This document shows positions 10,526 through 54,889 of a DNA stretch of 64,000 nt, in pieces. The notes beneath the pieces were generated by a model that saw nothing but the letters and a program-made list of their open reading frames with translations, was not told the origin of the DNA and did not search any database. Each line of letters begins with the position of its first letter. Position 1 is the stretch's first letter. The translations under genes and the position numbers were made by a program. The DNA is from Escherichia coli (GTDB lineage: Bacteria; Pseudomonadota; Gammaproteobacteria; Enterobacterales; Enterobacteriaceae): assembly GCF_024298765.1 (NCBI RefSeq), contig NZ_CP101212.1. One strand, given 5' to 3'.

Positions 10526-10527
10526 AC

Positions 10528-10551: not shown

Positions 10552-10569
10552 ACGCCTGAAACACTACGA

Positions 10570-32499: not shown

Positions 32500-32606
32500 A
32501 AATATAAAATCGCGACTTAATACGGAAAAAACTCTGTGCTACTCAGAACTGGCCGGTCATACTGCCCGACCGGATATTAAAAAAAGCAAATCTCATAAAC
32601 TCCTTT

Positions 32607-32647
32607 CAGCCTTCTGACTCCTGGAGTAATGAAGGCTGCTTTTTTCG
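32607..32647 (+). terminator. Plus-strand hairpin plus U-tract
   Basis: cagccttc ... gaaggctg stem with a 16 nt loop followed by CTTTTTTC. Confidence 0.35.
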
Positions 32648-32860
32648 TTACACCCTTCCCCGGCAGCGCCGGTGGCAGTGTTCAGCCCTTTTCCGGGCAA
32701 ACTGTTGCCAGTCTGTCCGGGGAGCTATGCAGGCAGCCCGTCGCCATGCTTCTGCCGCTTCCATCCAGCGTCCACTGACCTCCAGAATAACGGCCCGCCC
32801 GCCGGCACGCTGGTAACGCCAGACCTGACCGTTCCGTGAACTGTTTCTGAATCCATTCAT
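32648..32860 (-). CDS. Hypothetical small protein (70 aa)
   Basis: ORF only; no recognisable motifs. Confidence 0.3.
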   Translation of the reverse strand: MNGFRNSSRNGQVWRYQRAGGRAVILEVSGRWMEAAEAWRRAACIAPRTDWQQFARKRAEHCHRRCRGRV

Positions 32861-32967
32861 TTTTCTGCTCCTCCCTTTTAGTCGTCAGTATTATTGTGGT
32901 AAATAATTCAGTGGACTGGCTTCCTTTCGGGTACGGAAGTTATTTCCTTTTAAGCCTTATTGTTTCA

Positions 32968-32997
32968 GCCTCCCCGGTTTCCGGGGAGGCTTTTTTT
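32968..32997 (+). terminator. Hairpin gcctccccgg-ttt-ccggggaggc plus T-run, abutting the finO stop
   Basis: Perfect 10 bp GC-rich stem followed by TTTTTTT on the plus strand; on the minus strand it follows the finO stop with an A-tract before it. Confidence 0.45.
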
Positions 32998-33556
32998 ATT
33001 TCCCATCAAGCACGGCCTGAAGTTCTGCCTTTGTCCGGTTCTGGCGGCGAATTTTCTCCAAACGCCCTGCCGCATACGCTTCCTCCTCCTGAGAAATATG
33101 CTCCGTCACATACCCTTCCGTGTCATACCGGCAGGCACCGGCTTTCATGGCACACAGATAGCTTTCTGAACGGGTGATGGCCTTCAGCGCCCGGCGCAGT
33201 TTTTTATGCGAGAGCGGGATATTCCGCTGCGCCACGTCTTCCAGTAACACGTCCCGGATACCGCAGGCCAGAAGCCGGGGCGTGTTACCGTCAAACAATC
33301 CCGGCCACCAAGGTTTCAGAGTGTTCACCGCCTCATCCAGCGAGGGCAGCGTCAGATAAATGGACAGCGCCTGTCTGGCCTGTGCTTTCTTCGCCGCCAG
33401 CTCTGCTTCCCGGGCAGCCTTCTCCGCCAGTTTCTGCTTTTTCACCTTCCATTTTGGTGGCGTGGTGACATTGATGATGGTTTTCCGGCTCCGGGTCGGT
33501 GTTTCCCCTTCCGTTTTCCGTTTCAGTGTCAGTACCGGTCGTTTCTGCTCTGTCAT
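32996..33556 (-). CDS. finO: Fertility inhibition protein FinO
   Basis: 186 aa, basic N-terminus, matches F-like FinO; uninterrupted. Confidence 0.92.
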
Positions 33557-33658
33557 GATTGCCCTGACCTTTGTGAAAATATGTCCTCCAGGTCGTTGAA
33601 ACTACTCACTATGATATTAAGCTGACCTCAACGACCTCTGACATATTAATACCGACAA

Positions 33659-34519
33659 TTAAAGATGTTTTTTAAACCATTGCGTCTGTACTGCCGCCAC
33701 ACGTTCAAAAAACGCGCCTTTATAAATATCATAATGGCATGCGTCAGCTTCCTCGTATAATTCCTTAGTACCAGAAGCAACAGCATCATATAAGGCTCTT
33801 CCCTGTTCTGGTGGATTAACACTATCCTGGCCGGCAATAACAACCAAAACTGGGCACTGTACTTTGGCTGCGCTCTCTGCCGGTTTATATTGCAACGTCT
33901 CCATAACCGTAAGGAAAGGTATTTTTATATCCATTTCAGGATACTGACCTTTTACCTTCTCGAAGAATACCTTTGATTCATTATCACTCAGTACCCGGGT
34001 AACCCCCACAAACATCTCTTTCCCGGTATTTTTCTTCTTTTCTGCCATTTTATTCAGCGTGGACAGAAAAGAAGCTTTCTCCAGTTCATTCATTTCTCCG
34101 GTAACCAGAACCTCACCGTCAGCAAAAGCCAGCTGGCTGACAATACTTTTCACTCTTTTATCCTGCGCAGCTGCATTGAATACATGACACCCACCCAGCG
34201 ATGTTCCCCATAATCCTATACGCTGATTATCAATACATACCTGCTTTTCTGCCCAATTGATAACTGAAATAATATCTTCGGTCTGCATTGCCGGAACCAG
34301 ACGACCTCGTTCCCCTTCACTCTCACCGAATCCACGATAATCAAAAGTAATCGTTGCAAACCCGGCTTCTGTAAACGCATTCGCAAAGGAAGGCAGCAGA
34401 ACATTCCGGATACCGCAAAATCCATGGCATAAGAGAATCAAAGGATGTTTTATATTTCCTTCCGGGACACGAAATGTCAGGGCAATACCTTCAGGGAGTT
34501 TGTGATCCGTAATTTTCAT
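33659..34519 (-). CDS. Alpha/beta-fold hydrolase
   Basis: 286 aa; GTSLGG nucleophile elbow; between traX and finO. Confidence 0.8.
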   Translation of the reverse strand: MKITDHKLPEGIALTFRVPEGNIKHPLILLCHGFCGIRNVLLPSFANAFTEAGFATITFDYRGFGESEGERGRLVPAMQTEDIISVINWAEKQVCIDNQRIGLWGTSLGGCHVFNAAAQDKRVKSIVSQLAFADGEVLVTGEMNELEKASFLSTLNKMAEKKKNTGKEMFVGVTRVLSDNESKVFFEKVKGQYPEMDIKIPFLTVMETLQYKPAESAAKVQCPVLVVIAGQDSVNPPEQGRALYDAVASGTKELYEEADACHYDIYKGAFFERVAAVQTQWFKKHL

Positions 34520-34577
34520 AAATATCCTGTGTTATGTTGTTTATTAATAAGCAGAATCAGCGCCAGCATCATACCAG

Positions 34578-35324
34578 TCACACAGCCAGAACGCCCAGCA
34601 CAGTAAGATGACAGGCATAGAACGTCGGGAAAAAATCCCCGTACCAGAAACGGGGTAGTGATTTCCCTGTACAGGACACCAGACCAACAGTCAGCACCGT
34701 CATCACAAGGCCGGCCACCGCCGCTGCATCACTGGTGGCAAGGTTAAGCGCCGGAATAACAGCCAGCAGGCAGGCGACCAGCGCCAGACGTTCCATTCTG
34801 TCTTCCGCCCGGTACAGCCTGTGGCTGACTGCCAGCATCAGCAGCCCGGCAATGCCGTAACTGGTGCCGGAGAAAGGCAACCACATTGCCAGAAGCAACA
34901 TGGTCTCTGCGGAACGCCACCAGGTGCGCGTTTCACACCATGTCAGCACCTGTGCCGCAACTGCAAAGGCAAACAGGATATTCCCCTCATACCAAGGAAA
35001 GCCGGCCAGATAATATGCGAACTGGGCAATCACCGCCCATCCCCACAGCCGGTTAATGGCCTCCTGCCGGATATGCGTATGACGGGACAGATTCAGCCCC
35101 CACACCAGGGCAAACAGCGGAAAGGCCCCACGCCCGACCAGAAACATCCACGACTGGTCCAGATGCAGAATGCGGTTTGCATGGTCCAGAACCATCAGCA
35201 CCAGTGCCACCGTTTTGATGATATCCCGCTGTCCGGGTGACCAGACCAGCAACGACTGCAACCAGGTATCGGTCCGGGCAGCCAGTGAATCATTACGTGT
35301 TGTGTTCGTGTTATCCGTTGTCAT
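34578..35324 (-). CDS. traX: F-pilin acetylase TraX
   Basis: 248 aa polytopic membrane protein; synteny. Confidence 0.9.
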   Translation of the reverse strand: MTTDNTNTTRNDSLAARTDTWLQSLLVWSPGQRDIIKTVALVLMVLDHANRILHLDQSWMFLVGRGAFPLFALVWGLNLSRHTHIRQEAINRLWGWAVIAQFAYYLAGFPWYEGNILFAFAVAAQVLTWCETRTWWRSAETMLLLAMWLPFSGTSYGIAGLLMLAVSHRLYRAEDRMERLALVACLLAVIPALNLATSDAAAVAGLVMTVLTVGLVSCTGKSLPRFWYGDFFPTFYACHLTVLGVLAV

Positions 35325-35343: not shown

Positions 35344-38300
35344 TCAGTCTCCGCCCAGGGTTTTCTCTTTCTGCAGGTCACGAACCATATCCCGCTCCAT
35401 CTGCTGCAGTCGCTCCTGCAGCAGATTTTCCCGGGCAACCTCCCGGACCGCTTCCCGCACCCGTTGTGGTTCACGCAGTACACTCTCCGGCAGCGCGGCT
35501 TCCCGTTCAGATATGGCAGACCGGTCACGCTCCAGCCCGGCAATATCCCTGACAGCCTGCTCTGTTTTGCCGTCCGGCAGGTCAGGTTTGTTCTCTGCCA
35601 TTTTACGGACAATTTCATCCGCACGGCGTTCCGTTTCACGGCGGATGGCCTCTTCAGCCTGCCGCTGTGCCAGTACCTCTGCCGTGACCGGTTCGCCATT
35701 TCCGGCTCCCGGCTGAACGCTGTTGTCCGGGATATCCCCCCACACGCGACCACCGGTGATGGTTCTGGGATTCCACGGACGACCTTCACCGGCGATTCTT
35801 ACCACCACACCGCTGTCAGGATTATCACGGGCAATCCGGACACCATCCTGCATATTATCAGCCAGCAGGCTCTCTCCGTTACGGCTGCCCTGCAGGGCCA
35901 CGAACTGCGCATCCCCGCTGCCTTTCACCCGGCCTTCACCACTGAAGCCCCGCAGCCCGTTTCCGTCATCCGTGGTCAGCGGGTTCAGCCAGATACCAGC
36001 TGACTTGCCGTTACGGTCAAAAGCCGGCAGTGCCACATACGGCTGCGGATATTTGCGCCCGGGTGCAATAAACCGTGCAGGACTGTCTCCCCCGGCCAGC
36101 CCTGCCTGACGGAGAACGGCACGGCCGGCCACCACGTCCCGCAGCTCCCGCGCCGTACTGAACAGCCGCTCTGCATTCATGACCTCCCGGTCCGATTTCG
36201 GCTCCAGCACATCGTGGGCAGTTCCTTTCTGTACGGCATTGTTGATGGCATCCGTCCAGCCCTGACGGTTATCGGTGTACACCTGCACATGCTGCTTCAT
36301 ACGCGACAGGGCCACGTAGGCTGACTCAAAGCCGGCCATCAGTTTCCGGTTACCTTCCGTGCCTTCAAGCGCGATGGCAAAGGTTTCACTTGCCCCCTGC
36401 GCACCGTGGGCGGTGATGGCATAAGCCAGGTCAATATGTTGCTCTGCCCGCTCCTGACCTGGGCGAATCACCCGGATCTGCTGTCCGTCCGACAGCGTGA
36501 CACTGTCACCGGAAACCGCTGTCACCGTCCAGACGCTGTTGGCCACATAACCTCGCTCCCGGTCACTCTTCGTGAAGCGCATCCGGTCACCGGTTCCCAC
36601 CCGGATGGTGTCCGGGGTGTACAGTGTGACGCCTTCAGCCACCGCCTCCCGGGGCGAAATCAGCCGCGTGTTACCTTCCGCATCCTCCAGGGTTATCAGC
36701 CCGTCATCCTTGCTGATACCGGCAATCCGGTGATACACACTATCCACCAGGGCAAGGGCATCCGGGTTATTCTCCCAGGTGGAGAGACGACGCAGTTCTC
36801 CGTCACGTATATTCGCTGTGTTCAGGACAGGCACCATGACCTGCTCTTTGCCCAGCTCACCGGCCTTTTCCCGTGCATCATGAATCATGCTGTTCAGTAC
36901 GCGCCGGTCCTCATTCAGGTGTGTGACAATCAGCGTCTGCTCCCGTGCTTCCGGTGTCCTGCCGGTATAGTCGCGGACAATGGCTTCATACAGTGTCATG
37001 GGGATATCCGGGAAAGCCTCGCCTTTCAGCATCGCCTTCTGCTGCGCTTCTGCCAGTTTCGCTTCCTGGCTGTGACTGAACTCCGTCACGGAGTGCTCCG
37101 GTGCCCATGCGCCCTCCTGACGGGGAACCTGAGACGGTTTCACACTCTCAAGCCCGGACAGTGCCCTTTCCACATCCCGGTTAATCAGGCTGTATACCGC
37201 CTCCCGCAGTTCCGGCGTCTGACGCACAATCTCCTTCATGATGACCACATCGGCAGCACTGCGCGTCTGCTGGAGACGGAAAGGCTGACCGGGCGCGATG
37301 GCCTGCAACTGGTCCGTGTCACCACTGGCCACGGCACGACCGCCACCGGCCGCAATCAGGGCGTATGCCCGTGCCATGTCGGTATTGCCCACCATAGAGC
37401 TCTCATCGAGCAGGAACAGCGTGTTGCTGAAATTCGGCGTTTCTCCGCTGCGCTGCAGCAGCTGCGTGTCATGCAGAAAGGACGCCAGCGTCTGTGCATC
37501 CACGCCGGCGCTGCGCATCTCACCGACCGCACGGTGCGTGGGCCCCAGCCCCACGACACGGGGACGTTCACTCTCCGGCAGCATGTTCACGGCTGACATC
37601 ACCGCCCGGAACTGTGTGGTCTTACCCACACCGGCATAGCCCTGCACCACCGTGAAACGGTCGGACGTTTCCAGTATCATGCGGGTAGCGGCACGCTGTC
37701 CTGATGTCAGTTTCTCCATGAGTTCGCCAGGTACTCTCTCCATCAGTGGCGTGACCGCCTCCTTACCTTCGAGAATATGGCGAAGAATGCTCTTTTCTGC
37801 CTCATACGACGCACGGGAAACCAGCAGGCCTGTGCCATAGCCTTTTGCCACATCCACATACAGTAAATCACCGCGTTTTATCTGCGCATTGATTTCCCCT
37901 CCCAGTTCAGTAAAACTGGTTCCTTCTGCAGCAAACGACTTCGCCTCTGTCAGCAGGTCCACCATGCTGAAGGCCAGGTTTTTACTTTCCACCACAGGAA
38001 GCGCCAGATGAATAGCCTGCTGTGCCGGCGTGTGAAGCCCGGTTTTCTGCAGACTGATAGCGGTTTCCAGCAATGTCTCACCGGCACGCGCCTTTATCTG
38101 CTCAGAAACCACCGTAAAGGAGGGATGGCGGGCAAGTTTTTCCGCAGTACGGGTTTCATCCAGTGAGGAATACAGCCGGACATCACGACCGCTGCGGGCC
38201 AGACCGTTCAGGGTGGCGTTGTCCATTGCCATCTGTGTGACGGAGGCAAAAACCTTCGCACTGTCGCTGACGGAATGCCCGGGCGTTTCCACCCAGCCGT

Positions 38301-40614
38301 TCTCCAGCTTCAGTGCCATGAATGGTGAATCGCTCACAGGCAGGGAGGCCGGTTCAGCCCGCCCCGGCACAACAACCGTCATCGCATCTTCACTGACGGA
38401 TGCCACCTGCAGGCGGTCACCGCCGGAGACGCGGAGTCCGGGAATTTTCCCTGTCACCCTCAGTCGCTCGCCGTCTGCCACCGGCATTTTTTCCGGCCGG
38501 AACAGCGACCAGCTGCTGTCCAGGGAGGAAATACGCACCACCTGCGTTTCATCCTGCGCATCCCGCAGGGTCAGGCTGTTACTCTGCGCCGTCACCCGGT
38601 CGATAACATAGCGGTCATGACTGCGTGTCTCCGGGTTCCACTGCTCCATCACCATCCCCGGACGGTACATATCCCGCAGATAACGGCTCCGGCTGTCCAG
38701 CCAGACCGGCGACAGGGCGGTCATGGTTACCTCCGGGCGTCCGAGCACGCCCTGTGTTTTCAGCTCACTGCGAATGGCCTGTGTCAGTATGGCCTGTTCC
38801 CGTACCCCGCTGACCTGTGCCACGCTCTCTTCTCCGGCTTTCACGCTGGCAGCAAAATCTCCTGCCAGCCGGGCATAGCGGACATTACGGTCCGGTTCAC
38901 TGATGATGGTGGCCGGCCGCTGTTCTCCCCCCTGCCAGCGATATGTGTTCACCCCGGCATCTTTCATGGCCATCAGTGCACTGCCTGTACCGGTTCGCTG
39001 CCCGCTGTCGGTTATCAGGACCTGTACGTTATGACGTGCGGCACCGTCCAGCAGGGTTAACGTCTCTTTCAGGGAGAGTTTTTCGCCCTGGTCAACGATA
39101 ACAGTATTGCCCGGCGTGAAGGCCATGCCCTCCTGCAGCTGACGACGTCCGGTTATCAGCTCACCGGACAGCCGTTCATCCTGCTTCAGGTTCATCTGCG
39201 AGCGACGGTCAGCGGCGATAATCTGCACCTCCCGCCCCTGCTCCCGGGCCATCATGACCAGCTCCGCCACCCGCTCACGCTGCCCGGCTGCACCGCCCTG
39301 CCCGGACACAATAGCCAGCGACGGGCGATCCTGTGCCAGAACACTGACCGCATCGCTGTAACCGGCCGTCCGGGGGACACTTTTCTCCGGATGTACGGTC
39401 ACCCGGTTCTGTTTCATGATGTCACGACTGAGTGCCCGGACTGACAGCTCATCGAGCACATGAATCCCGGACGTGAACAGCCCCTTCTCACGATCGAGGG
39501 GGATAAGCTGCTCACGGCTGATGGCCTCATCGATACCGGCGCGTGCCCGTTCAATCACACCATTTTCCGGCGGCAGTATGCCGACCGTTCTGGCCAGCAC
39601 GTCCGTGTACGTAAACTGCACTTTGCGTTCACTTAATCCGGCAATGGCCTGTGTCACCGCCTGCTGCACATCCGGCCCGTCCTGTGAAGCGGGTCCGGGC
39701 GTCTGCGTGCGGGTCTCCGCCCGTTGGTCCGCCGCGTCACGATACGCCCGGATGTCGAACCCGGTTTCCTTCAGCGTCTGCATCCATTCAGCCATTCTGA
39801 CTTCAGGATCGACGTGCTGTTTGGATTTTCGCGTATCCAGTGCCGCCACATCCCGGGATTTCAGCGAGGCGTCTTCCCCGACGGCCTCCCGGATAGCCTG
39901 TGAGCGTCCGGAGAAGGCCTCCACCGGTACGCCCGGCATCTCCCACATACCGTGCTTACCAACCACTTCCGTTTCATAGCCTAGCGCCTCAACCTGCTCT
40001 TTCAGTTTTTCCCGGTAGAGCCTGCCGAAGGCAATCTGATTAGCGTACACATTCTCAATGAACCCCGTTTTCCCCACTTTGTCACTGCTCAATGTCTTCC
40101 ACTCGCCGTTATGCTGCGTGACATTGGCCACTACCGCATGTGTGTGTAACTGTGGTTCCTGATCGCGACTGGTGTCGTGGTTAAACAGTGCCATCACCAG
40201 ATTACCGGTCAGCACCGTTTCTGACTGTCCGTCCGTCATAACCCGTGTGGAAGCCAGCGCCTCCACCTGACGGACAGCAAAATCCACGGCCTGGTTATGT
40301 GCATCAATAAGACGTTTATCACCGCCTAACATGGCCATCACGGAGACACTTTTGGGGGCGGAGAAGGTCAGGTCGTAGCCGGGACGATGCTTATTACTGC
40401 CATCCTGCATGCGGCTTAAATCCGCTCCGTCCGGCAGCTTCCCCTCCAGAAGACGGGTAAAAACATCCTTATCGACGCTGCCCTGCAGCCCCAGCTGTTC
40501 AGCCCCCCTGCCGGCCCAGCGTTCTCCCATGCTGCCCAGCACATAGTAATTATCCTTGTCGGTATAATAGTTACCGGCACTTCCGGCCGATCTGACCTGC
40601 GCGATACTCATCAT
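35344..40614 (-). CDS. traI: Relaxase/helicase TraI
   Basis: 1756 aa from MMSIAQVRSAGSAGNYYTDKDNYY; relaxase N-terminus plus helicase Walker motifs. Confidence 0.95.
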   Translation of the reverse strand: MMSIAQVRSAGSAGNYYTDKDNYYVLGSMGERWAGRGAEQLGLQGSVDKDVFTRLLEGKLPDGADLSRMQDGSNKHRPGYDLTFSAPKSVSVMAMLGGDKRLIDAHNQAVDFAVRQVEALASTRVMTDGQSETVLTGNLVMALFNHDTSRDQEPQLHTHAVVANVTQHNGEWKTLSSDKVGKTGFIENVYANQIAFGRLYREKLKEQVEALGYETEVVGKHGMWEMPGVPVEAFSGRSQAIREAVGEDASLKSRDVAALDTRKSKQHVDPEVRMAEWMQTLKETGFDIRAYRDAADQRAETRTQTPGPASQDGPDVQQAVTQAIAGLSERKVQFTYTDVLARTVGILPPENGVIERARAGIDEAISREQLIPLDREKGLFTSGIHVLDELSVRALSRDIMKQNRVTVHPEKSVPRTAGYSDAVSVLAQDRPSLAIVSGQGGAAGQRERVAELVMMAREQGREVQIIAADRRSQMNLKQDERLSGELITGRRQLQEGMAFTPGNTVIVDQGEKLSLKETLTLLDGAARHNVQVLITDSGQRTGTGSALMAMKDAGVNTYRWQGGEQRPATIISEPDRNVRYARLAGDFAASVKAGEESVAQVSGVREQAILTQAIRSELKTQGVLGRPEVTMTALSPVWLDSRSRYLRDMYRPGMVMEQWNPETRSHDRYVIDRVTAQSNSLTLRDAQDETQVVRISSLDSSWSLFRPEKMPVADGERLRVTGKIPGLRVSGGDRLQVASVSEDAMTVVVPGRAEPASLPVSDSPFMALKLENGWVETPGHSVSDSAKVFASVTQMAMDNATLNGLARSGRDVRLYSSLDETRTAEKLARHPSFTVVSEQIKARAGETLLETAISLQKTGLHTPAQQAIHLALPVVESKNLAFSMVDLLTEAKSFAAEGTSFTELGGEINAQIKRGDLLYVDVAKGYGTGLLVSRASYEAEKSILRHILEGKEAVTPLMERVPGELMEKLTSGQRAATRMILETSDRFTVVQGYAGVGKTTQFRAVMSAVNMLPESERPRVVGLGPTHRAVGEMRSAGVDAQTLASFLHDTQLLQRSGETPNFSNTLFLLDESSMVGNTDMARAYALIAAGGGRAVASGDTDQLQAIAPGQPFRLQQTRSAADVVIMKEIVRQTPELREAVYSLINRDVERALSGLESVKPSQVPRQEGAWAPEHSVTEFSHSQEAKLAEAQQKAMLKGEAFPDIPMTLYEAIVRDYTGRTPEAREQTLIVTHLNEDRRVLNSMIHDAREKAGELGKEQVMVPVLNTANIRDGELRRLSTWENNPDALALVDSVYHRIAGISKDDGLITLEDAEGNTRLISPREAVAEGVTLYTPDTIRVGTGDRMRFTKSDRERGYVANSVWTVTAVSGDSVTLSDGQQIRVIRPGQERAEQHIDLAYAITAHGAQGASETFAIALEGTEGNRKLMAGFESAYVALSRMKQHVQVYTDNRQGWTDAINNAVQKGTAHDVLEPKSDREVMNAERLFSTARELRDVVAGRAVLRQAGLAGGDSPARFIAPGRKYPQPYVALPAFDRNGKSAGIWLNPLTTDDGNGLRGFSGEGRVKGSGDAQFVALQGSRNGESLLADNMQDGVRIARDNPDSGVVVRIAGEGRPWNPRTITGGRVWGDIPDNSVQPGAGNGEPVTAEVLAQRQAEEAIRRETERRADEIVRKMAENKPDLPDGKTEQAVRDIAGLERDRSAISEREAALPESVLREPQRVREAVREVARENLLQERLQQMERDMVRDLQKEKTLGGD

Positions 40615-40695
40615 AAACGTATATCCCTTTGACATATCCCGGTATCAATCCCACAATGGATATACACAAGACATATCCACATAAGGAGGCAAATA

Positions 40696-40923
40696 ATGGA
40701 AACCACCGTATTTTTCAGCAACCGCAGCCAGGCGGTCAGACTGCCAAAAGCGGTTGCATTGCCGGAAAACGTAAAACGCGTTGAAGTGATTGCTGTCGGA
40801 CGAACCAGAATCATTACGCCAGCCGGAGAGACATGGGACGAATGGTTCGACGGACACAACGTCAGCGCCGATTTTATGGATAACAGGGAACAGCCCGGCA
40901 TGCAGGAAAGGGAGTCATTCTGA
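40696..40923 (+). CDS. vapB: VapB/VagC antitoxin (AbrB/SpoVT fold)
   Basis: 75 aa; overlaps the vapC start (TGATG). Confidence 0.85.
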   Translation: METTVFFSNRSQAVRLPKAVALPENVKRVEVIAVGRTRIITPAGETWDEWFDGHNVSADFMDNREQPGMQERESF

Positions 40924-41321
40924 TGCTGAAGTTTATGCTCGATACCAACATCTGCATTTTCACGATAAAGAACAAACCCGCCAGCGTCAGGGAGCGTTTT
41001 AACCTGAACCAGGGGAGAATGTGTATCAGTTCGGTCACCCTGATGGAGCTGATATATGGTGCAGAAAAAAGCCAGATGCCTGAACGTAATCTCGCTGTGA
41101 TCGAGGGATTTGTTTCCCGCATTGATGTTCTGGATTACGACGCTGCCGCAGCCACACACAGCGGCCAGATAAGAGCAGAACTTGCCCGTCAGGGACGCCC
41201 TGTCGGGCCATTTGATCAAATGATCGCAGGTCATGCCCGCAGTCGGGGACTGATTATTGTGACTAATAACACCCGGGAATTTGAACGTGTGGACGGTCTG
41301 AGAATTGAAGACTGGAGCTGA
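40923..41321 (+). CDS. vapC: VapC/VagD PIN-domain toxin
   Basis: 132 aa; MLDTNICIF N-terminus, acidic PIN residues. Confidence 0.85.
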   Translation: MLKFMLDTNICIFTIKNKPASVRERFNLNQGRMCISSVTLMELIYGAEKSQMPERNLAVIEGFVSRIDVLDYDAAAATHSGQIRAELARQGRPVGPFDQMIAGHARSRGLIIVTNNTREFERVDGLRIEDWS

Positions 41322-41329
41322 CCTGTTCA

Positions 41330-43483
41330 TCAGAAATCATCTCCCGGCTCAACATCCTCCCCGCGCTCCCGGTGCACATTGATGTTCACCTCTTCACGAC
41401 GCTGCATCTTCTGCTGGATATCCGGATTCTGCTCCCGTTGCCATGCCTCATAAACGGCCATATCCACCACTTCACCGGATTCACTGATCCCGGGTGGCAG
41501 TTGCTGTTCCATCTCTTCTTCCGGTTTCATTTTCAGCTCCTGCTCGATCCCCCCTGCCGGAACATTCACACCTGCATCTGACTTCTTATCGTTGATGGCA
41601 GGAGACACCGGCTGTTGCGGCTGTTCAGCCTGAGTCACGTCTTCTCCGGAAACAACCTCCGGGACATCCGGTTCGAAGAGGCTGGCCATCTGACGACCTT
41701 CTGCTTCCCTTGCGGCAAGTACGGCACTCAGACGGTTCTCCATTTCCGGGTTGATGTCACGCGGAATAAACTCCGGAGCGACCTTCGGTCGTGTCTGATA
41801 TTTCAGGGAGAGTTTTACTGCCGGATACGGTCCGGGCAGGGTGACATAACAGGTCAGATCCGGCAGAGACTGAATGTCGGAATAACTGACCAGCGTCTGA
41901 CGCTCCATATCCTTACCGGTCGATACCCCGTCACGTACCGGATCAGCACCGTAGGAATACTGCTCGCTGGCTTTCAGGTGCTCTTTCTCACCAATTTCAC
42001 CGGCAGCGAACTCTGCAATCTTATGGCTGGGAGAACGGAAAAAGGCACGGGTGTTCATGACGTCAAACAGCGTGGCAGCCGCTTTCTCACCGTAGATATC
42101 TTCCAGCTGGGCATAGGACTGGATACCAAACACATAACAGCCACCGAACTTACGGGCTTCCGGCAGGATCTCCACCAGATCCGGCAGTTTGTGTAACGTG
42201 GGTAACTCGTCACAGAAAAACCACACACGACGGTTACGGTTTTCTCCCATTGCCAGCAGACCACGAATAGCAATGGACAGCCACATGGAGATCACCGGCT
42301 TCAGGGAGGCATGGGTGTCGGCGTTCGACGAAATAAACAGCCAGCCGTTTTTCTGATCTTCCCGGACACCACGCATCCAGTCACGGATGGTGAAGGGCTC
42401 ACCGTTATGCTCAATCCCCTGCAGGTAACGGATGGCTTTCACGTAGTTGGTCAGCACAGCACGGATGGATATGGCCGTTTTCTCGATTTTCTCTTCCACC
42501 AGGTTGGCCGCCGGTGAATTACGCAGGAAGGTACGCAGCTTTTCAATTTTGATGGAAAGCAGTGTGTCCACCAGTTTGCTGTAGCTGCGGTTGGGGTCAT
42601 TACGCATCAGGTATGCCGCTTCCGCAAAAATGGTACGTCCTGAACCCTGCCAGAACGGGTCCTCTTTTGTCCCCATCGGGATCAGAGTATTTGCGGTATT
42701 ATCAAAATCTGGCTGTGTCAGGCACTCCTTCCACAAATCCCAGGCAGCACAGCGTGCATCCAGCGGATTCAGGATTTTATCGATGGAGGGATCATAGTAA
42801 CTTTTAACAAATTCCCCCGAACGGTCATAAATCACCACCATATCACCACGCTGACGGGCGTAGTTGGCCAGACGACGGATAACCTCCGACTTACCGGCCC
42901 CGACAGTGCCGTGCAGACAGAAGTTCTGGATTTCAGAATCCCGGATAATCGGCAGATCGCCAATCCGGATATCGGAATCCTTGCCATCTTTTTTCAGCAT
43001 CCTGGCCACCTCTTTCGGATTGTCAGTCAGCTGACGACCACCTGTGATTTCATTTTCGCTCTGTTGTTTACCCTGACGCCCCAGAATCCAGGAGACAACA
43101 AAGAAGGTGATCAGGCAGATAACCAGGGCCACGACAGACGCCAGAACGAATGCCGACCATAACTGCTCACCGCACCAGATCATATATTTATCATGCAGTA
43201 CCTGAGCCGCGTTCATCCGGAAGGTTTTGCCGTAATACTGGATCTCATAGACCGGCTGGGACCTGATTAAATCCCGCATGCCTTCCAGCGTGGTGCACCA
43301 CCAGTAAATGCAGCCATTCACAAACGTCTGCCAGCTTATTTTTACCCATAAAACCAGACCAACTAGGATCCAGAAAAAAATAAACAGGCAGTAAAGTATG
43401 ATATTGGCGATCTGACTGAACATGCGGATACGCATGGACGCAATCTGACCGCCCTGGGTCATATCCTTTGCGTTAAAACTCAT
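41330..43483 (-). CDS. traD: Type IV coupling protein TraD
   Basis: 717 aa; Walker A GTVGAGKS; C-terminal QQP-rich tail. Confidence 0.95.
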
Positions 43484-43634
43484 GATGATATTCTGAAGAA
43501 AGAAAGTCAGTCGGACTGATTATTAATGATGAAAAGATTAATAACCGTTAAATTCCGGCTTCGCCGGCAACACTTCACGGTCGCACAAAGAATTTGCACA
43601 ACCGCTCAGTGTTTTCATATTTATTTCGGAAACG

Positions 43635-43670
43635 CCGGGGAGAAATAAAATTTATTTTATTTCTCCCCGG
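43635..43670. repeat. 17 bp perfect inverted repeat between traT and traD
   Basis: ccggggagaaataaaat-tt-attttatttctccccgg; possible traT terminator or protein-binding site. Confidence 0.5.
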
Positions 43671-43735
43671 GGTTGGACAACGAGCAAAGCGAGGCGTCAG
43701 TCAGGAGGCCGGTCAGACCAGCCTCCGGAAGATAA

Positions 43736-44467
43736 TCAGAGAATATTTGCGATTGATTTGGCCAGCTGGTCTTCGAGAACAGGCTTCGCCTCTTCAAATT
43801 TCAGGTTAACCTTGTTCGCATTTGAGACCACACGGGTCTGGTATTTATGCTGGTTACCTGTTTCAGTACTGGTCTGAATTTTCGCACCTGATGTGCCCTG
43901 ACGCAGGGCGGCAACATTATCCGTTGTCACCGTTGCCTTAGTACGCTCTGCAATCTGCACATCCGTGATCATGGTATAGTTCACATCTTCCACCATCGCA
44001 TCTGCAGCCATACCCACCAGACCGGCAGCAAGGCCCACACCGAGTGTGGCACCGGCAGAATTGGAATTATATCCGGTGATACCGGCACCTAACGCTGCAC
44101 CAACTGCTGCGCCTTCATAACCACGGTTCAGCCATCCCTGAGACTCCCGCAGATCCATCTTATCGGCCTTCAGCACATTCGCCTGAATCCAGTAGTAGGC
44201 TTTATCCGGAGAAGTCACCACCTGATACCCTTTTGCTTTCACAGCATCAGCAATTTTGCCCTGCAGCCCACTCATGTCTTTATCAGACGTGTTTTTGATC
44301 TGCAGAAATACCGTGCGTTCGCTGGCGGGTTCAAGCCAGATGGTCTCACTCATCTGAGTCTTCACCTCAAGGTTACGCTTCTTGATTGCTGTGCTCATCG
44401 CACCACACCCTGAAAGGGCCAGAGTGGAACTGACCAGTGTAACCATCATCAATTTTTTTGTTTTCAT
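43736..44467 (-). CDS. traT: Surface exclusion / serum resistance lipoprotein TraT
   Basis: 243 aa from [21 protein letters not shown] (lipobox). Confidence 0.92.
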
Positions 44468-44498
44468 CAAATTACCTTTTTTACAAACTACAGTTTTC

Positions 44499-44996
44499 TT
44501 ATTGCCTGTCATAATAGTCCTGCCAACGAGTCCCAAAAGTATTTCCCGCTGAATCAAAGCCTCCATGCATAGGATATCCGGTTGAAGGGTTATAGTAGAT
44601 CGTTGGGGTCTGTTCAATGCCCCCGAAGTCTAACTTTTCACTCCCATCATATTGGTCTTTGAGTTGATTTTGCCCCCATTTTTTTATGCTTATGCAACCA
44701 CTAACTTGCCTTAATTCGTATAGTGTACCAATGATAAAAACCATCAGGCTTAATAACGGAGAGAGTAAGGAAGATACTGGCATCGTTATATACCAAACGC
44801 CTTTACTAAACTTAAACTCATCCGACACATCCCGTTTTTTTCGTATTTGAGAGAACAACCAGATAAACAGTCCCTGCCATAGCACTATGAAGAACAGCAT
44901 AAAAACTGTTTCGGCATTCCCCCAATCAGCCAGATAACAGGCGATAAACTGTATCACTGTTACCAGAGCAATATGGGCTAAACATCTCATTATCAT
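44499..44996 (-). CDS. traS: Entry exclusion inner-membrane protein TraS (by position)
   Basis: 165 aa hydrophobic protein between traG and traT. Confidence 0.7.
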
Positions 44997-45011
44997 CTCC
45001 CAAACACAGTA

Positions 45012-47834
45012 TTATTGCTTATACTTATCCTGATACTCCTTTGCCCTTTTCATCAGTTCCTGTGGACTGTCAGCCCCGGGCATTCTTTCCTGAGCCGACT
45101 TTTCTTCATTATATTTATTATTCTGAGATAATGCCTCTGTTTTATGGTGATTCTGCAGTTCAGAATACTGTCCTCTTACAATATTTTCCTCGCCACGTAT
45201 GCTGTTCTGAGTATCACCTATATTCCCTTTATATTCTGTGACCATATTATCAACCTGATGTTTTACATCATTACGGATATTACTGTCCTGCATTCTTTGC
45301 TCAATAATGGCCTGATGTCCCTGATGGTCAGCAATAATATCCTGACTGCCTCCACCCGAAGGTACGCTCTCCATTCCTTTACCAATATCGCCACGGGATT
45401 CCCGCCAGGCATTATCAACACCAGGCTGTATCTGTTCCTGCACAAAAGACCAGGCCATTGCCCGACGGCGTTCTGCAATCTCCGGCGAACTGGTATTTGT
45501 CAGAATAGCTTCGGCATCCTGCGGTGCGTGTTTCATCACATACTGTGCAAACTGTTGCGACAAATCTTCGCTCATCTGCCCACTCATGCTTTCAGTACGG
45601 GATGCCATTTCAGCATATTCATGGCTGCGGGTCATATTCGTCGTGTACTGGTCGTAACTCTGTTTCGCTGAATTCAGGGCTGCAGACAGTTGATCCACCC
45701 GGGAATCAGCATTATTGTCAGTATGGCTGCCGGATTCACTGACTTTGCGACTGGTAAAGTAATCGCTGGCCTCTTTAAAGTCCTTACTGGCTTTAGCGTC
45801 AATATCATGACGAGCATCATAGCTGGCCCGTGAACCACTGCTGGCCTGATGCGCATCATCATCACTCCAGTCAATGCCAGCCCGACCACCACCTCTAACG
45901 CCTAATCCTCCACCAACACCAAGAATTTTAGGTTTAACCCCCCATTCAGCATGAGCATCTCCATACATCCCGGCAGAAGCTCTCGTACTTCTGGATGCCA
46001 GTTCCTGAGTCGCCTGCTCATTACTGATATTATGCGCCTTCGCATAGCTTTCCACTGCACTGCGCATACGGCTGGCCATCATGGAGTCCTGTGCACTCAT
46101 CGTACTGTCAGCACCACTGGTGACAGAGTCACTGCTCCCCCGGTTAGAACCAAACTGACTGAGCGTGTTCCAGGCACTGGCAATACTGCTGCTGAAACCA
46201 TGCAGGGCACTTTCTGCTCTGTTCGACGCCTCCCGGGCCATTTCCTGTTGTGCCACTGCAATCTGACGCGTTGCATTGATACCGACCGGTAAACGGGACA
46301 TCGCTCCGCTTGCATCCATCACCATATTACCGTCACGGGTCTGTGTGGCGGTTGCGCCACTGCCGGTCTGGTACATCATCTGACCAAACGACGTGGTGCT
46401 GTTGGTGCTCCAGCTGAAGCCGTTCACGTTTTCCGTCTGCATGTTGCCGTAGGAGTAATTACCGTCAACCACACTACCTGCCGCACTGGCAGTCGGGCTG
46501 ATAGCAGAGGAAGCGAAATGGCTGTACACACTGGAAAATCCGGCCCCAAGCCCCCTGACCATCATCCAGGATAATGGCGGGATCATCATGGAAAGATACC
46601 CGGCAGTGGAAGCCAGATCGGAGTATTTCAGTTGTATCTGTGAAATTTCAGAGAGCACCACCGGCGCACCATTCTGTTTCGCATAAAATGTCATGGCACT
46701 GTTCAGAATGGCGTACAAGAGTGGCCATGACTGCAGCCACATCAGGGCAAACACATAACCTTTCAGGACAGACAGCGTCAGTTTGTTGAATACAGCCGCC
46801 AGTACCAGGAGCGGGAAAATACCGATGGCGATCCCCGTCAGGATGGTCTGCGTCATGGGCAGTGTCCGCATCGCCACATGACCGATGGAGACATGTGCCA
46901 GACGTTGTTTCTCCATCGATGACGTGGTGGCCAGATTCACCAGGCTGGCCGAATCACCATTACGTGCGGCATAACTGGTGATCCCCTCCTTCAGCGCATT
47001 GATGGTGACATTCTGGCGGATGATCTGGCTGGCTGATTTACTTGAGCCATAGAAGTAACTGTAACTGTCGCCAATCAGCGTACTGAACAGCAGGTTAGGA
47101 TCAGGGCGTCCACCAAATAGCTGCTGGGCATAATAATGCCAGGTTTTTCCGCCACTCTGTGTGTCCAGATTCAGCTTGTCTTTCAGCGAAACCGACGCGT
47201 CCTTACAGGTTACGAAATTATTATTGCTGTCATAAACGCCCCGCAGCGGGCTGGGGCGGGAAAAAATCAGCGTGTAGGGATCAGCGGAGGCCATCAGCTC
47301 CTCCAGCGTGTATTTGTGGTTCAGGTAAATATCCCCCATAACACAGTTCTGCACATAATCCTGGAAAAGATTGGCGATTTCCGGATTGCGGGACAAAAAG
47401 TCGGTGCTTTTTGATACCAGTTCTGCGCCAAACAGCATCCCCGTTTTGCTGTAGGTGACACTGTCCGGTTGCGTGAAGATCATCTCGTAACTGGCCACCA
47501 TTGCATGCCCGATACGGGTCGTCAGTGAAAGTGGCATCGCCAGTCCGACCGGCACATTATCCACCCGGTGAACTTTGACCAGGTCACTGTTATCAATAAT
47601 CTGCACCGATGTGCGGACATTAACCAGCAGGCTGATAAGCACAAATACGGCCACCCAGCCCAGCAAATCCATCACGTTGTGCCGCTGTACCCACATTACG
47701 GCCACCGCGAGAACAGACAATGTGAGCGCAATTTTTTCAATGGAATCCCACGTCCTGGTTCCCATAAAGGCGGCAATGGCGTTCAGGTTATTCCGCAACC
47801 ACTCACCACCGGCAATCACATAAACTTCATTCAC
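45012..47834 (-). CDS. traG: Mating-pair stabilisation protein TraG
   Basis: 940 aa; synteny. Confidence 0.93.
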   Translation of the reverse strand: MNEVYVIAGGEWLRNNLNAIAAFMGTRTWDSIEKIALTLSVLAVAVMWVQRHNVMDLLGWVAVFVLISLLVNVRTSVQIIDNSDLVKVHRVDNVPVGLAMPLSLTTRIGHAMVASYEMIFTQPDSVTYSKTGMLFGAELVSKSTDFLSRNPEIANLFQDYVQNCVMGDIYLNHKYTLEELMASADPYTLIFSRPSPLRGVYDSNNNFVTCKDASVSLKDKLNLDTQSGGKTWHYYAQQLFGGRPDPNLLFSTLIGDSYSYFYGSSKSASQIIRQNVTINALKEGITSYAARNGDSASLVNLATTSSMEKQRLAHVSIGHVAMRTLPMTQTILTGIAIGIFPLLVLAAVFNKLTLSVLKGYVFALMWLQSWPLLYAILNSAMTFYAKQNGAPVVLSEISQIQLKYSDLASTAGYLSMMIPPLSWMMVRGLGAGFSSVYSHFASSAISPTASAAGSVVDGNYSYGNMQTENVNGFSWSTNSTTSFGQMMYQTGSGATATQTRDGNMVMDASGAMSRLPVGINATRQIAVAQQEMAREASNRAESALHGFSSSIASAWNTLSQFGSNRGSSDSVTSGADSTMSAQDSMMASRMRSAVESYAKAHNISNEQATQELASRSTRASAGMYGDAHAEWGVKPKILGVGGGLGVRGGGRAGIDWSDDDAHQASSGSRASYDARHDIDAKASKDFKEASDYFTSRKVSESGSHTDNNADSRVDQLSAALNSAKQSYDQYTTNMTRSHEYAEMASRTESMSGQMSEDLSQQFAQYVMKHAPQDAEAILTNTSSPEIAERRRAMAWSFVQEQIQPGVDNAWRESRGDIGKGMESVPSGGGSQDIIADHQGHQAIIEQRMQDSNIRNDVKHQVDNMVTEYKGNIGDTQNSIRGEENIVRGQYSELQNHHKTEALSQNNKYNEEKSAQERMPGADSPQELMKRAKEYQDKYKQ

Positions 47835-49207
47835 CGCGTGCTCCCTCCGAAGTGATAGTTGTTTTGGTAACGACTGAGCATGCGGGCGGAAAGCTGCTGA
47901 CGCATGTAGCTCATCTGACGATCGACAACCAGCAGCGCATCCTGCTGTACCTGCACCTGTGACTGAAACGCCGCAATCTGCCGGGTGGCATCATTCATGT
48001 TGTCGTTAATATGTCCGATAACCGCTTCGTCATAATTTCCCGTGGCCACCATCGCCCGGGCCTGCTGTATCAGCTCCTGAATGTACTGCAGCAGGATGTC
48101 GTAACCGATATAGTCCGTCAGCTGGTAAATCATGCTGTTGGAAACTCCGAGCATCTGCGGGTCAACCAGGTATTTGAAGACGGGGATGGTGGTACTGGAA
48201 ATAAAGCCTTTTTCCTTGTCATCCAGAGGCGTGTCACTGACCGCCTTGTTCTGAATGCTGGCCAGAAGTTTAGTAATCTGAGACTTCAGTGCATTATCCC
48301 GGCTGATAGTCACCGGTGTGTCTGCCACCACTTTCAGGCATTTATCAGAATCGTTGCAGTGATAAATTTTTGCTGTGCCGCCTTCCATCATGGCCCGGAT
48401 AATTGAGCGGTCAGTGGTTCTGGCTGACAGCGGTGTGATTTCGCCGTTGGGACCAAACACCAGTGAGCCGGTCAGCGTCATCACAAATTCTTTCAGCTCT
48501 TTGTTGCCGTCAAACATTCTGTTTTTGGAAAGCGCATTCCACATGATGTTGATGTTTTTGGTCACCCGCTCCTTATCCTTGTCGCTGGCTTTATCCCTGA
48601 CACTGTCAGATTTCCCGCCAACGGTACATCCCTGCCGGGAAGCCGCCCAGTCAGCAAAAATATTGCTCTCACCGGCAATGTCCTGACAGACTTTCTGCTG
48701 GGACACCTGCGTCCGGGGGAAAAGCCCGCCGATAATCCCCTGTGCAGCCTGGCAGGAACTGAGGTTCATACTGTTAATGTCGCTTGCCATTTTCTGCACG
48801 AAGTCTTTTGCGGTTTTTATTTCCGGCACCGTTGTCTGCAGGGCAAGGTCAAAAAAGTAACCGGCAGCATTGCTCATAATCTGCTTAACAAAACGCTGCA
48901 ACTGCTCACCATTAATAAAACTGAACGAGCCGAGATAGGCGTCGATGCCGCCACATCCAGCATTGATATCCGGCAGCGTCATGGAAATTAGCTGAACATT
49001 TTTGACCTGAGTACGGGCATACAGGGAGCCACCGTAAGCATAGCCGGCGGCCTGCCCCTGCCAGACGCCCGGCTGTGTGGTATTGGAAGCAAATCCCAGC
49101 TTATTAAAGAACTGATTCATGTCGCTGTTCACATCCGCTGACGCTGCAGGCGTCACCGTCAGTAAGGCGGCACAAAGAACCAGAAGAGGTTTAATGCGTG
49201 GCATCAT
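47831..49207 (-). CDS. traH: Pilus assembly protein TraH
   Basis: 458 aa with signal peptide. Confidence 0.93.
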   Translation of the reverse strand: MMPRIKPLLVLCAALLTVTPAASADVNSDMNQFFNKLGFASNTTQPGVWQGQAAGYAYGGSLYARTQVKNVQLISMTLPDINAGCGGIDAYLGSFSFINGEQLQRFVKQIMSNAAGYFFDLALQTTVPEIKTAKDFVQKMASDINSMNLSSCQAAQGIIGGLFPRTQVSQQKVCQDIAGESNIFADWAASRQGCTVGGKSDSVRDKASDKDKERVTKNINIMWNALSKNRMFDGNKELKEFVMTLTGSLVFGPNGEITPLSARTTDRSIIRAMMEGGTAKIYHCNDSDKCLKVVADTPVTISRDNALKSQITKLLASIQNKAVSDTPLDDKEKGFISSTTIPVFKYLVDPQMLGVSNSMIYQLTDYIGYDILLQYIQELIQQARAMVATGNYDEAVIGHINDNMNDATRQIAAFQSQVQVQQDALLVVDRQMSYMRQQLSARMLSRYQNNYHFGGSTR

Positions 49208-49584
49208 TCTTGCCCTCCCTTAATGTGTTCTCCCGGTGCATACGACATTTCAGCAGGAATATCTCGATATTTCCGTATATTAATTCGTACATTGGGGACA
49301 GAAAAAAATGTAACAAGAAACCCGGCTGCAAGCGCATATAACGCATACGGAATGGCATATATCAGGATATTCCACATATAACTCGAATTATTTAATTCCG
49401 GGTCCGCTTTCCACGAATCAATACAGGCATCAAAAATAATATCCATAACTGTCCATAAAACAATTCCGGCAGTCAGGAATACCAGAGACAACCCAGCATA
49501 CCTGCCAGTAATTCTGGAAATGTATTTATAATCTCGTTCTGTACTTCTGATTTTGAGCTCAGGATTACTTTTATTTTCTCTCAT
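49204..49584 (-). CDS. trbF: TrbF
   Basis: About 126 aa from the internal ATG; membrane protein; synteny. Confidence 0.7.
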   Translation of the reverse strand: MRENKSNPELKIRSTERDYKYISRITGRYAGLSLVFLTAGIVLWTVMDIIFDACIDSWKADPELNNSSYMWNILIYAIPYALYALAAGFLVTFFSVPNVRINIRKYRDIPAEMSYAPGEHIKGGQE

Positions 49585-49852
49585 TATAAGTTCCCTCTGA
49601 TATTTCCGATGATTCATTCAGACCGGTCATGCGGCTGTAATATATTTCAGACACCGAAATCCATCCCACAATTGCCCCCACAAAAAACACAACAGAAACA
49701 GAAAAGGTAAGACTCAGCGAAACGACAATTTCTACAGGGCTGGCGGGATAAAAAAGCCCCTGACGGATAAAGGGGATATTCAGGCTGACGATTATTCCCG
49801 TCACGATGCCGGATATTCCGGCAATGAGTAACACCACCTGCTTATTTCGCAC
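49571..49852 (-). CDS. trbJ: TrbJ
   Basis: 93 aa from a GTG start overlapping the trbB end. Confidence 0.7.
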   Translation of the reverse strand: MRNKQVVLLIAGISGIVTGIIVSLNIPFIRQGLFYPASPVEIVVSLSLTFSVSVVFFVGAIVGWISVSEIYYSRMTGLNESSEISEGTYNERK

Positions 49853-50387
49853 CTTTTTTTCCTCCGTACATCTGCAAAACGGTATCCACCCGCGCCATAA
49901 AACCGGCGGCATCCGTTGCCCCCTGTAAAAGCGGTAATGCCTCAAGCGTGTTGACGTTGACCAGGAAGGTGGTCGGTGTGGCCACCGGGATATTCGGGAA
50001 GAAGGTCTGCATCACCTCCGGTGGCACCGGTAATGCTTCAGGAAAGGCCGTATCCCCCTGACCATCCAGGGTGTAGGAAAAAACGGAAAAGCCGTACTGC
50101 TGTGCCAGCTGTTTCAGTACCGGGTCAAACTGGTGACAGTAAGGGCAATGCCCCTGCATAAACAGCACCACCTTCCAGTCGGCCAGGTTAACCTGCCTGC
50201 CATTACTGAGGCGGAACCAGCGGGGAGCCGGCTTTGCTGTCCTGGCTGACGTGCCTGCTGCCGGTTGTGCAGGCTGCGTAGCCATACCCTGCGGATTCCA
50301 GAGTCGCTCTATTTCATCCCGGGTGGAGGCCTGCACAGCAGCGGCGCTCAGCAACAGGGTGAACAGCAGTGATTTAGTGAGAGACAT
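49842..50387 (-). CDS. trbB: Thioredoxin-like disulfide isomerase TrbB
   Basis: 181 aa with CPYC motif. Confidence 0.88.
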   Translation of the reverse strand: MSLTKSLLFTLLLSAAAVQASTRDEIERLWNPQGMATQPAQPAAGTSARTAKPAPRWFRLSNGRQVNLADWKVVLFMQGHCPYCHQFDPVLKQLAQQYGFSVFSYTLDGQGDTAFPEALPVPPEVMQTFFPNIPVATPTTFLVNVNTLEALPLLQGATDAAGFMARVDTVLQMYGGKKGAK

Positions 50388-50658
50388 GTCCGCCCTCCTG
50401 CTGCCCTTCCATCATGGCCTGTTGCCTGGCTTCCAGTGCCTCACGCTCTTCCCGGCTGACACGGGCAATCCATGCATCCAGCACCTGGTATGCGCCGAAC
50501 AGTACGAGAATGGCCGCAATCAGCTCCGCCAGAAAAAAAGCCATCCAGGGTTTGCTGTAAACAAGACGGGCGACGATATGAAACCAGACACCCAGGGAAA
50601 ATACCCACATTCCCGTAATATCAAGCCGGGGTAAAGAGAATCTGCGTTTACTTATCAT
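50374..50658 (-). CDS. traQ: Pilin chaperone TraQ
   Basis: 94 aa. Confidence 0.85.
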   Translation of the reverse strand: MISKRRFSLPRLDITGMWVFSLGVWFHIVARLVYSKPWMAFFLAELIAAILVLFGAYQVLDAWIARVSREEREALEARQQAMMEGQQEGGHVSH

Positions 50659-50738
50659 GTTAAACTCCGGTTATTATTTACATGAGAGTATTCATGTCTG
50701 TAATATTCGCGTTTGTGTGATATTAATCAGAGGTACAA

Positions 50739-51053
50739 ATGGAAAAGCGATCTTTTAAAGAAAAACTGGAAATAATCAGAAACATAATAAGAGAGTCGTT
50801 ACCGGGAAATGCGGCAATTATTGCGCTGATATATGCAGCATCACATTCATTACCGGTCAATGCCTTCCCTGACTATCTTGTAATAAGTTTATTAAGTATC
50901 GCAGCAGGCATCGTTGTATTATGGTTATTTTCAATTATCTATATTTATTTTTGTGAGCTATTCAGAAGCCACTGGATTGCGGTATGGTTTATCATATGGT
51001 CTTCAGTAATCAACCTCATTATTTTGTATGGTTTTTATGACCGTTTTATATGA
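50739..51053 (+). CDS. artA: ArtA (antisense-strand tra-region ORF)
   Basis: 104 aa hydrophobic protein on the strand opposite the tra operon, between traQ and trbA. Confidence 0.75.
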   Translation: MEKRSFKEKLEIIRNIIRESLPGNAAIIALIYAASHSLPVNAFPDYLVISLLSIAAGIVVLWLFSIIYIYFCELFRSHWIAVWFIIWSSVINLIILYGFYDRFI

Positions 51054-51054
51054 C

Positions 51055-51402
51055 TTAGCCTGTCATAAGCCCCCTTATAAAAAACCACATCACTCCGGAC
51101 CATACCGATGACAACACAATACAGATAAATATTCTTCTGAACCTGTCGAAGCTCGTAACGTCCGGTAATGCGGCCGCAACTATTGAAACAACCAGTGCTG
51201 CGCCCTGACTCATAATTGCACCACACAGAAACCAGAGACTGGCGGTAAGCACATATAAACACGCGATATTAATAACAAGGAAAACCAGTGAGCTCAGGAG
51301 AAACATTTTCCTGTCATTACGCTCAGAAAAGAAATAACCGGCAATAATGACAAATATTAACAGAACAACACCTGTAAACATTTTCAAATAATCTTCACTC
51401 AT
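51055..51402 (-). CDS. trbA: TrbA
   Basis: 115 aa membrane protein. Confidence 0.8.
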   Translation of the reverse strand: MSEDYLKMFTGVVLLIFVIIAGYFFSERNDRKMFLLSSLVFLVINIACLYVLTASLWFLCGAIMSQGAALVVSIVAAALPDVTSFDRFRRIFICIVLSSVWSGVMWFFIRGLMTG

Positions 51403-51417
51403 AAATCAAATCCGCGA

Positions 51418-52161
51418 TTAAAAATTGGGTTTAAAATCTTCAGAAACGTTCAGGAACTGTTTTGCCAGGTCGTCCTGCGAAATAAAGCCGTATGATAACG
51501 GGCGAATACTGCCCTGTTTCGGGTCAACCAGCATCATGGCCGGGAAATATTTCACGCCGAGGCGCTGCGCCTGCCCCTGGTCAGTCCGGGAATCCGGCAA
51601 CAGCGGATTAATCACGCCATCCACGGAAACGGGAATAACACTCAGACCATACGTATCCCGGAAGCCATTAATGACCTGCGCCAGTTGCCCGTCGATGGGG
51701 TCCTGCCCCCGGTAAAAAAACATGATGCCGTAGTGTTCAGCCAGTTTCGCAATGGCCTGTCGCTGCTGCGCCTGGTCTGCTGCCAGCTGGTTCCGTACCG
51801 TGCCGTTGTAATGGCTGTACTGCAGGTTATAGTCCAGTTCAGGATGTGCCAGCATGGCCTTTCTGGCGCTCATGGTGAAAAGCCCGGCCTGCTGAGTCCA
51901 GTAATTTTGCAGCCGGAAATATTTCACAAAATTATCCACGCCGGGATACAGAATGGCTTCGTACAGCGCCCGCTTTGTTGCCGTCTGCAGTGCGGCCAGT
52001 TTCTGCATAATATCCGGTTCCTGACGGGGGGCTGCAGATACAGGTTTATTTTCTTTTTCCTTCGGATTTATTTTCTCGTTATACCACTGCCAGCCTGCAT
52101 CTTTTCCTGACGCCGGAAAAATAAAGCAGCAGAGTAACAGTGGCAGTAATGCTTTATTCAT
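51418..52161 (-). CDS. traF: Pilus assembly protein TraF (thioredoxin-like fold)
   Basis: 247 aa from MNKALLPLLLCCF. Confidence 0.9.
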   Translation of the reverse strand: MNKALLPLLLCCFIFPASGKDAGWQWYNEKINPKEKENKPVSAAPRQEPDIMQKLAALQTATKRALYEAILYPGVDNFVKYFRLQNYWTQQAGLFTMSARKAMLAHPELDYNLQYSHYNGTVRNQLAADQAQQRQAIAKLAEHYGIMFFYRGQDPIDGQLAQVINGFRDTYGLSVIPVSVDGVINPLLPDSRTDQGQAQRLGVKYFPAMMLVDPKQGSIRPLSYGFISQDDLAKQFLNVSEDFKPNF

Positions 52162-52414: not shown

Positions 52415-52437
52415 TTCCCCCGGTTATTTCCCATACC

Positions 52438-54884: not shown

Positions 54885-54889
54885 TCACC

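Follow-up and report, generated by a model that had tools for sequence, protein, structure and literature searches.

The finO locus

The finO gene lies on the minus strand of a window of 64,000 nucleotides (the whole stretch of Escherichia coli DNA that was analysed, to which all positions refer), where it is flanked by a gene for an alpha/beta hydrolase and a gene for a small regulator of the ANR family. The features of the locus are as follows.

32566..32751, plus strand: AS-pc02 antisense RNA, overlapping the ANR gene (Rfam RF02876, 181.9 bits)
32648..32860, minus strand: small regulator of the ANR family, 70 aa, downstream of finO (NCBIfam ANR_neg_reg, 33.5 bits, cut-off 32)
32967..32991, no strand assigned: GC-rich hairpin of 11 bp, 4 nt past the finO stop (terminator scan, RNA fold)
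32996..33556, minus strand: finO coding sequence, 186 codons from an ATG start to a TAA stop, uninterrupted (ORF list and translation)
Between 33160 and 33161, minus strand: equivalent of the IS3 insertion point of plasmid F, after codon 132, continuous in the window
33557..33658, minus strand: spacer of 102 bp between the hydrolase gene and finO, the 5' leader of finO, with a long hairpin at approximately 33578..33647 and a weak Shine-Dalgarno sequence
33659..34519, minus strand: gene for an alpha/beta hydrolase of 286 aa, directly upstream of finO (Pfam Abhydrolase_1, 8.5e-33)
34578..35324, minus strand: traX, for the pilin acetylase, last of the tra genes ahead of the hydrolase gene and finO (Pfam TraX, 3.9e-65; annotation of pCREC-544_1)
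35344..40635, minus strand: traI, upstream of traX
35344..63728, minus strand: traI to traK, tra operon genes covered by the window, intact (ORF list)

Past the ANR gene the sequence continues with hok/sok, copB, CopA and the IncFII repA. The order of finO and the ANR gene is the same in plasmid pCREC-544_1 as in the window.

Identity and integrity of finO

Since the window is rich in spurious antisense reading frames of 120-277 aa (ORF list), the length of a reading frame proves nothing in itself and the assignment of finO rests on homology. The product matched the Pfam families FinO_N (PF12602; 1.1e-38, 131.5 bits, cut-off 25) over residues 1-62 and ProQ/FinO (PF04352; 3.1e-27, 95.1 bits, cut-off 27) over residues 73-177 of the 186-aa protein. 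The NCBIfam model of FinO, PRK13754, scored 356.9 bits (cut-off 136) and spanned positions 1-185 of 186. Residues 33-184 matched the FinO crystal structure 1DVO in the PDB (E = 4e-92), which is that of the R6-5 protein (PMC7555446). A first-pass annotation of this DNA had reported an intact finO of 186 codons at 32996-33556; Pfam, NCBIfam and 1DVO all agree with this, and the location on the minus strand, which was not stated there, can be added.

The protein could be aligned without gaps with FinO of R6-5, of R100 and of F, the last in reconstituted form. The codons of finO showed 13 synonymous and 9 non-synonymous differences from R100, and 23 synonymous and 10 non-synonymous differences from F, with neither frameshifts nor stop codons in either comparison. 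W36, a key residue in strand exchange by FinO, and K46, K81, R121, K125, R165 and K176, which cross-link to stem-loop II of FinP (PMC3105414), were invariant in the alignment of the window protein with FinO of F and R6-5. At six positions (T69, N91, G164, E167, T175 and G185) the window protein carried residues unlike those of both F and R100. Two of the six adjoin residues that contact RNA, G164 being located beside R165 and T175 beside K176.

The RNA-binding domain PF04352 is common to this protein, the chromosomal protein ProQ, RocC and a 205-aa protein encoded by pO83_CORR, a plasmid of the AIEC strain NRG857c (NC_017659.1). A second gene with a FinO domain, comparable to that of the 205-aa protein, was not found within the window by tblastn (nothing below E = 1). 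The similarity of the window protein to ProQ and other FinO-domain proteins is only remote, the PDB entries 5NB9, 7RGS and 6S10 being matched at 1e-4 to 2e-5. The RNAs bound by ProQ number in the hundreds; FinO, by contrast, has a high selectivity for FinP, and in Salmonella for RepX in addition (PMC8136791).

Comparison with plasmids F and R100

In plasmid F the finO gene is split by IS3 (PMC5102898 and PMC7690428, citing Cheah & Skurray 1986 and Yoshioka et al. 1987). The interruption can be followed in the F record NC_002483.1, where the finO start follows traX by 55 bp and codons 1-132 reach the last base of the record. Positions 1-1258 of the same record are IS3 (1258 bp), and these are followed by a 3-bp duplication (AGC) and then by codons 133-186 and the stop codon. 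The statement in the first-pass annotation that finO of F is interrupted by an IS element is thus confirmed, and the element can be named as IS3, inserted after codon 132. In the window the 24 nt that correspond to the two sides of the insertion point (CGTTCAGAAAGC on one side, TATCTGTGTGCC on the other) form an unbroken, exact match at 33149..33172. With IS3 and the 3-bp duplication taken out, FinO of F has 95% protein identity to that of the window. A further difference is that F possesses no 286-aa reading frame between traX and finO, so that positions 33558..34572 of the window have no counterpart in F.

A contiguous finO (at least 80% of the query) was present on at least 4,979 PLSDB plasmids, as counted from the best-scoring 5,000 records, and 370 of these best 5,000 records carried a finO with at least 99% identity. 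In a survey of 256 MOBF12 plasmids all classical (group A) plasmids were finO+ with the exception of F (PMC5102898). The intact finO is something already known: a textbook gene, correctly annotated, in the default state of F-like plasmids. While the gene is indeed intact, as had been said, its intactness is not the notable feature that the earlier framing made of it, F being the laboratory exception.

The gene order traX - 286-aa hydrolase - finO - ANR regulator is of the R100 type and not of the F type. R100 (NC_002134.1) showed the same order with identical spacing and 91% DNA identity over 3 kb. Its FinO also has 186 aa and differs from that of the window at 9 of 186 residues, most of which lie in the C-terminal helix, while R6-5 FinO (1DVO) is 94% identical to the window protein. 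In FinO of both R100 and R6-5 every mapped RNA-contact and strand-exchange residue is as in the window. The region downstream of finO has diverged from R100 far more than finO itself, with only 53% identity in the spacer between finO and the ANR gene and 75% in the ANR gene. The traJ/finP allele that is linked to finO in the relatives of the window is F-like and not of the R100 kind.

Leader and transcription of finO

The 102-bp spacer between the hydrolase gene and finO is 100% identical to that of R100, whereas the flanking genes show 89-95% identity. The identity is not confined to the spacer but extends over a run of 323 bp (33398..33720) which reaches into both flanking genes. The spacer may be a conserved leader element of finO or it may be part of a recent recombination patch, which explains the identity equally well. 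Its RNA folds with -31.5 kcal/mol (z -3.5); that the hairpin leader sets the dosage of FinO is a more doubtful possibility.

A simple consensus scan, which a weak promoter could escape, detected no sigma-70-like promoter and no terminator-like site on the minus strand of the spacers traX-hydrolase and hydrolase-finO. This would fit, although it does not prove, read-through transcription of finO. The gene is probably transcribed from traX through the 286-aa reading frame and co-transcribed with the latter. The 11-bp hairpin next to the finO stop codon is accompanied by a run of seven T residues on the plus strand only, and hence it appears as a strong terminator for convergent transcription on the plus strand; on the side of the finO mRNA it is a 3' hairpin without a U-tract. 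A convergent transcript with AS-pc02 in it is probably terminated here.

The FinOP circuit

FinO belongs to the FinO/ProQ family of RNA chaperones. By binding to FinP, an antisense RNA, at stem-loop II and the 3' tail, it protects this RNA from RNase E, and it catalyses or accelerates base pairing between FinP and the leader of the traJ mRNA. In the FinP-traJ duplex the ribosome-binding site of traJ is hidden and the duplex is degraded; with little TraJ the PY promoter is mostly off, and the pilus and transfer genes are on in a small fraction of cells (PMC8136791, PMC7690428, PMC7555446). On the inference that finO is expressed and that the finP and traJ genes past the end of the window are intact, FinOP would limit the expression of the genes traI-traK of the window, ultimately through TraJ. 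An intact finO would be expected to result in the low, repressed transfer rate that is typical of natural F-like plasmids, and a burst of transfer would be expected in fresh transconjugants. Because FinO is neither allele-specific nor plasmid-specific, a co-resident F should be repressed in trans (the fi+ phenotype).

The last base of the window falls within traE, shortly after traK (63000..63728), and no Rfam match to FinP or to the traJ leader was found in it, in agreement with the first-pass annotation, which had placed finP and traJ outside. Beyond base 64000 are located part of traE, traL, traA, traY, traJ with its leader, finP, traM and oriT. Because finP, the traJ leader, traJ, traY and oriT are among these, the circuit was completed from the relatives of the plasmid.

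Plasmid pCREC-544_1 (NZ_CP024827.1) differs from window positions 29529-64000 by 2 mismatches in 34,472 compared bases, the stretch from repA to traK being 99.99% identical. It is typed as conjugative in PLSDB, its annotation lists all tra genes as intact, and traE, traL, traA, traY, traJ, traM and FinP are all intact. Its traJ is located at the window equivalent of 65.5-66.2 kb, which places finP and traJ approximately 1.5–2.3 kb past the window end, and the 229-aa product shares its protein accession with TraJ of F. Rfam matches were obtained for FinP (98.6 bits) and for the traJ 5' UTR (124.3 bits). FinP and traJ are intact in pO83_CORR too, and are F-type as in pCREC-544_1.

The TraJ, TraA, TraL and TraE proteins of the relatives are exactly those of F, but the loop of FinP stem-loop II is not. 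The traM-traJ spacer is the same in pCREC-544_1 and pO83_CORR and differs from that of F mainly in this loop, apart from two single-base changes. In the sense of traJ the loop reads UUCUCUC in the relatives and ACGUGAA in F. The first 88 nt of traJ, a segment presumably containing the FinP promoter (on the strand opposite to traJ), do not differ between F, pCREC-544_1 and pO83_CORR. The relatives thus combine a different finP allele with a regulatory region otherwise identical to that of F.

Functional evidence and alternative explanations

FinO of pO83_CORR is identical to that of the window at 186 of 186 residues. The same genes flank finO on both plasmids, and both have the same ColV-type background with iroBCDEN; the order of hydrolase gene and finO is also shared, although the hydrolase of pO83_CORR is a different allele. 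On deletion of finO from pO83_CORR, a PY reporter was switched on and traK and traG mRNA rose approximately 100-fold (PMC12491478). This is direct evidence that the FinO protein found in the window is needed for FinOP-type repression in pO83_CORR, a plasmid with the same traJ/finP region as pCREC-544_1, and because the tested protein is identical, the finO allele of the window represents a working repressor component. The result also argues that the six window-specific substitutions are tolerated. The two plasmids differ in their transfer genes: pO83_CORR has lost traB-traH and a pilus of its own is impossible, whereas traK-traX is complete in the window. We regard it as very likely that the window contains a functional finO at the usual far end of an F-type transfer region.

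An intact finO might nevertheless be accompanied by a FinOP circuit or a transfer system that is broken beyond base 64000, whether in the finP promoter or stem-loops, in traJ, in traY, in oriT or by insertion of an IS element, and the plasmid would then be derepressed or non-transferable. The regulatory half of the system does lie outside the window, positions 13-29.5 kb within it are packed with IS1, IS66 and Tn3-family elements, and lesions have occurred in relatives, as exemplified by an IS3-family insertion in the traB-traM stretch of at least one close relative and by the loss of traB-traH from pO83_CORR. Such a break is made unlikely by the near-identity of the repA-traK stretch to the conjugative-typed pCREC-544_1 with its intact traE-traM genes and FinP, and by the 694 PLSDB records which match the traP-traM stretch with at least 99% identity.

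Much less probable again, and in our view scarcely to be expected, is that FinO is made from an intact gene but is too scarce or too weak for more than slight repression, either because finO lacks a promoter of its own or as a consequence of the six allele-specific substitutions. The lack of promoter-like minus-strand sites in the two upstream spacers, the weak Shine-Dalgarno sequence and the position of G164 and T175 next to RNA-contact residues would all be compatible with weak repression, and F-like plasmids reportedly differ 10- to 100-fold in the strength of FinO (van Biesen and Frost, in work of 1992). On the other hand, the 286-aa reading frame upstream of finO is presumably the arrangement that gives high finO mRNA in R6-5, and the leader shows 100% identity to its counterpart in the well-repressed R100. 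The strongest objection comes from pO83_CORR, in which the identical protein, encoded in the same hydrolase-finO order, exerts approximately 100-fold repression (PMC12491478).

Repression by FinOP, which the first-pass annotation had called probable, is supported by the identical FinO of pO83_CORR and by the intact FinP and traJ of the relatives. With the relatives as its basis it is a sound reading, and the plasmid is probably FinOP-repressed, though the window by itself cannot prove this. For annotation, the value of the result is that it describes a ColV-type virulence plasmid (iroBCDEN, cvaB) with its traK-traX block complete and conjugation under a functioning brake. Such a plasmid should spread in episodes and under repression, not constitutively, and transfer of a co-resident F-like plasmid should be dampened.

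The 286-aa hydrolase

The 286-aa reading frame matched the NCBIfam equivalog model lactonase_UilS (NF047920) with 504.3 bits, against a cut-off of 400, over positions 1-285 of the 285 in the profile, and the nucleophile motif G-x-S-x-G is present in its translation as GTSLG. It scores as a putative N-acyl-homoserine-lactone (AHL) lactonase of the UilS type. The gene is present in R100 and in pO83_CORR, where its RefSeq name is uilS, and absent from F. We take it to be orf286 of R100/R6-5. In 1992 van Biesen and Frost reportedly connected orf286 with an increase in finO mRNA and with tighter repression in R6-5; our literature search found no text describing an effect of orf286 on finO mRNA.

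UilS is a urea-induced AHL lactonase whose activity has been shown for the Serratia marcescens enzyme only, and plasmid copies are not mentioned in the paper that describes it (PMC11633161). In R100-type plasmids, that of the window among them, the 286-aa gene may encode a working AHL lactonase, a quorum-quenching enzyme co-expressed with a fertility inhibitor, but we consider this doubtful. If it were true, the sensing or destruction of AHLs from neighbouring cells would be tied to the control of conjugation; E. coli reads AHLs through SdiA. We know of no study of a link between the 286-aa hydrolase and fertility inhibition.

Other features of the window

The iroBCDEN salmochelin cluster was located at 3189..12747 and, together with cvaB-related matches in relatives, marks the plasmid as a ColV-type virulence plasmid of ExPEC/APEC. 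Mobile elements form a dense mosaic in the region 13000..29528: IS1 and IS66 (the latter with accessory genes) are each present in two copies, and there is a transposase of the Tn3 family. The near-identical match to pCREC-544_1 breaks off abruptly at 29528, just beyond repA. In megablast searches with window positions 1-25000 and 10000-34000, no PLSDB or complete RefSeq E. coli record covered 80% or more, and the left 29.5 kb is a mosaic that is matched as a whole by no record of either collection.

Between traD and traI, on the strand opposite to the tra genes, a vapB/vapC toxin-antitoxin pair was found at 40696..41321 (plus strand). F and pO83_CORR carry the pair as well; R100 does not. A 239-aa reading frame on the minus strand (40611..41330) is in all probability an antisense ORF of the spurious kind. 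Rfam further identified two antisense RNAs inside tra genes, AS-traI at 37689..37765 (plus strand, 103.7 bits) and AS-traG at 47030..47115 (plus strand, 63.9 bits), as well as STnc490 at 356..477 (minus strand, 90.8 bits).
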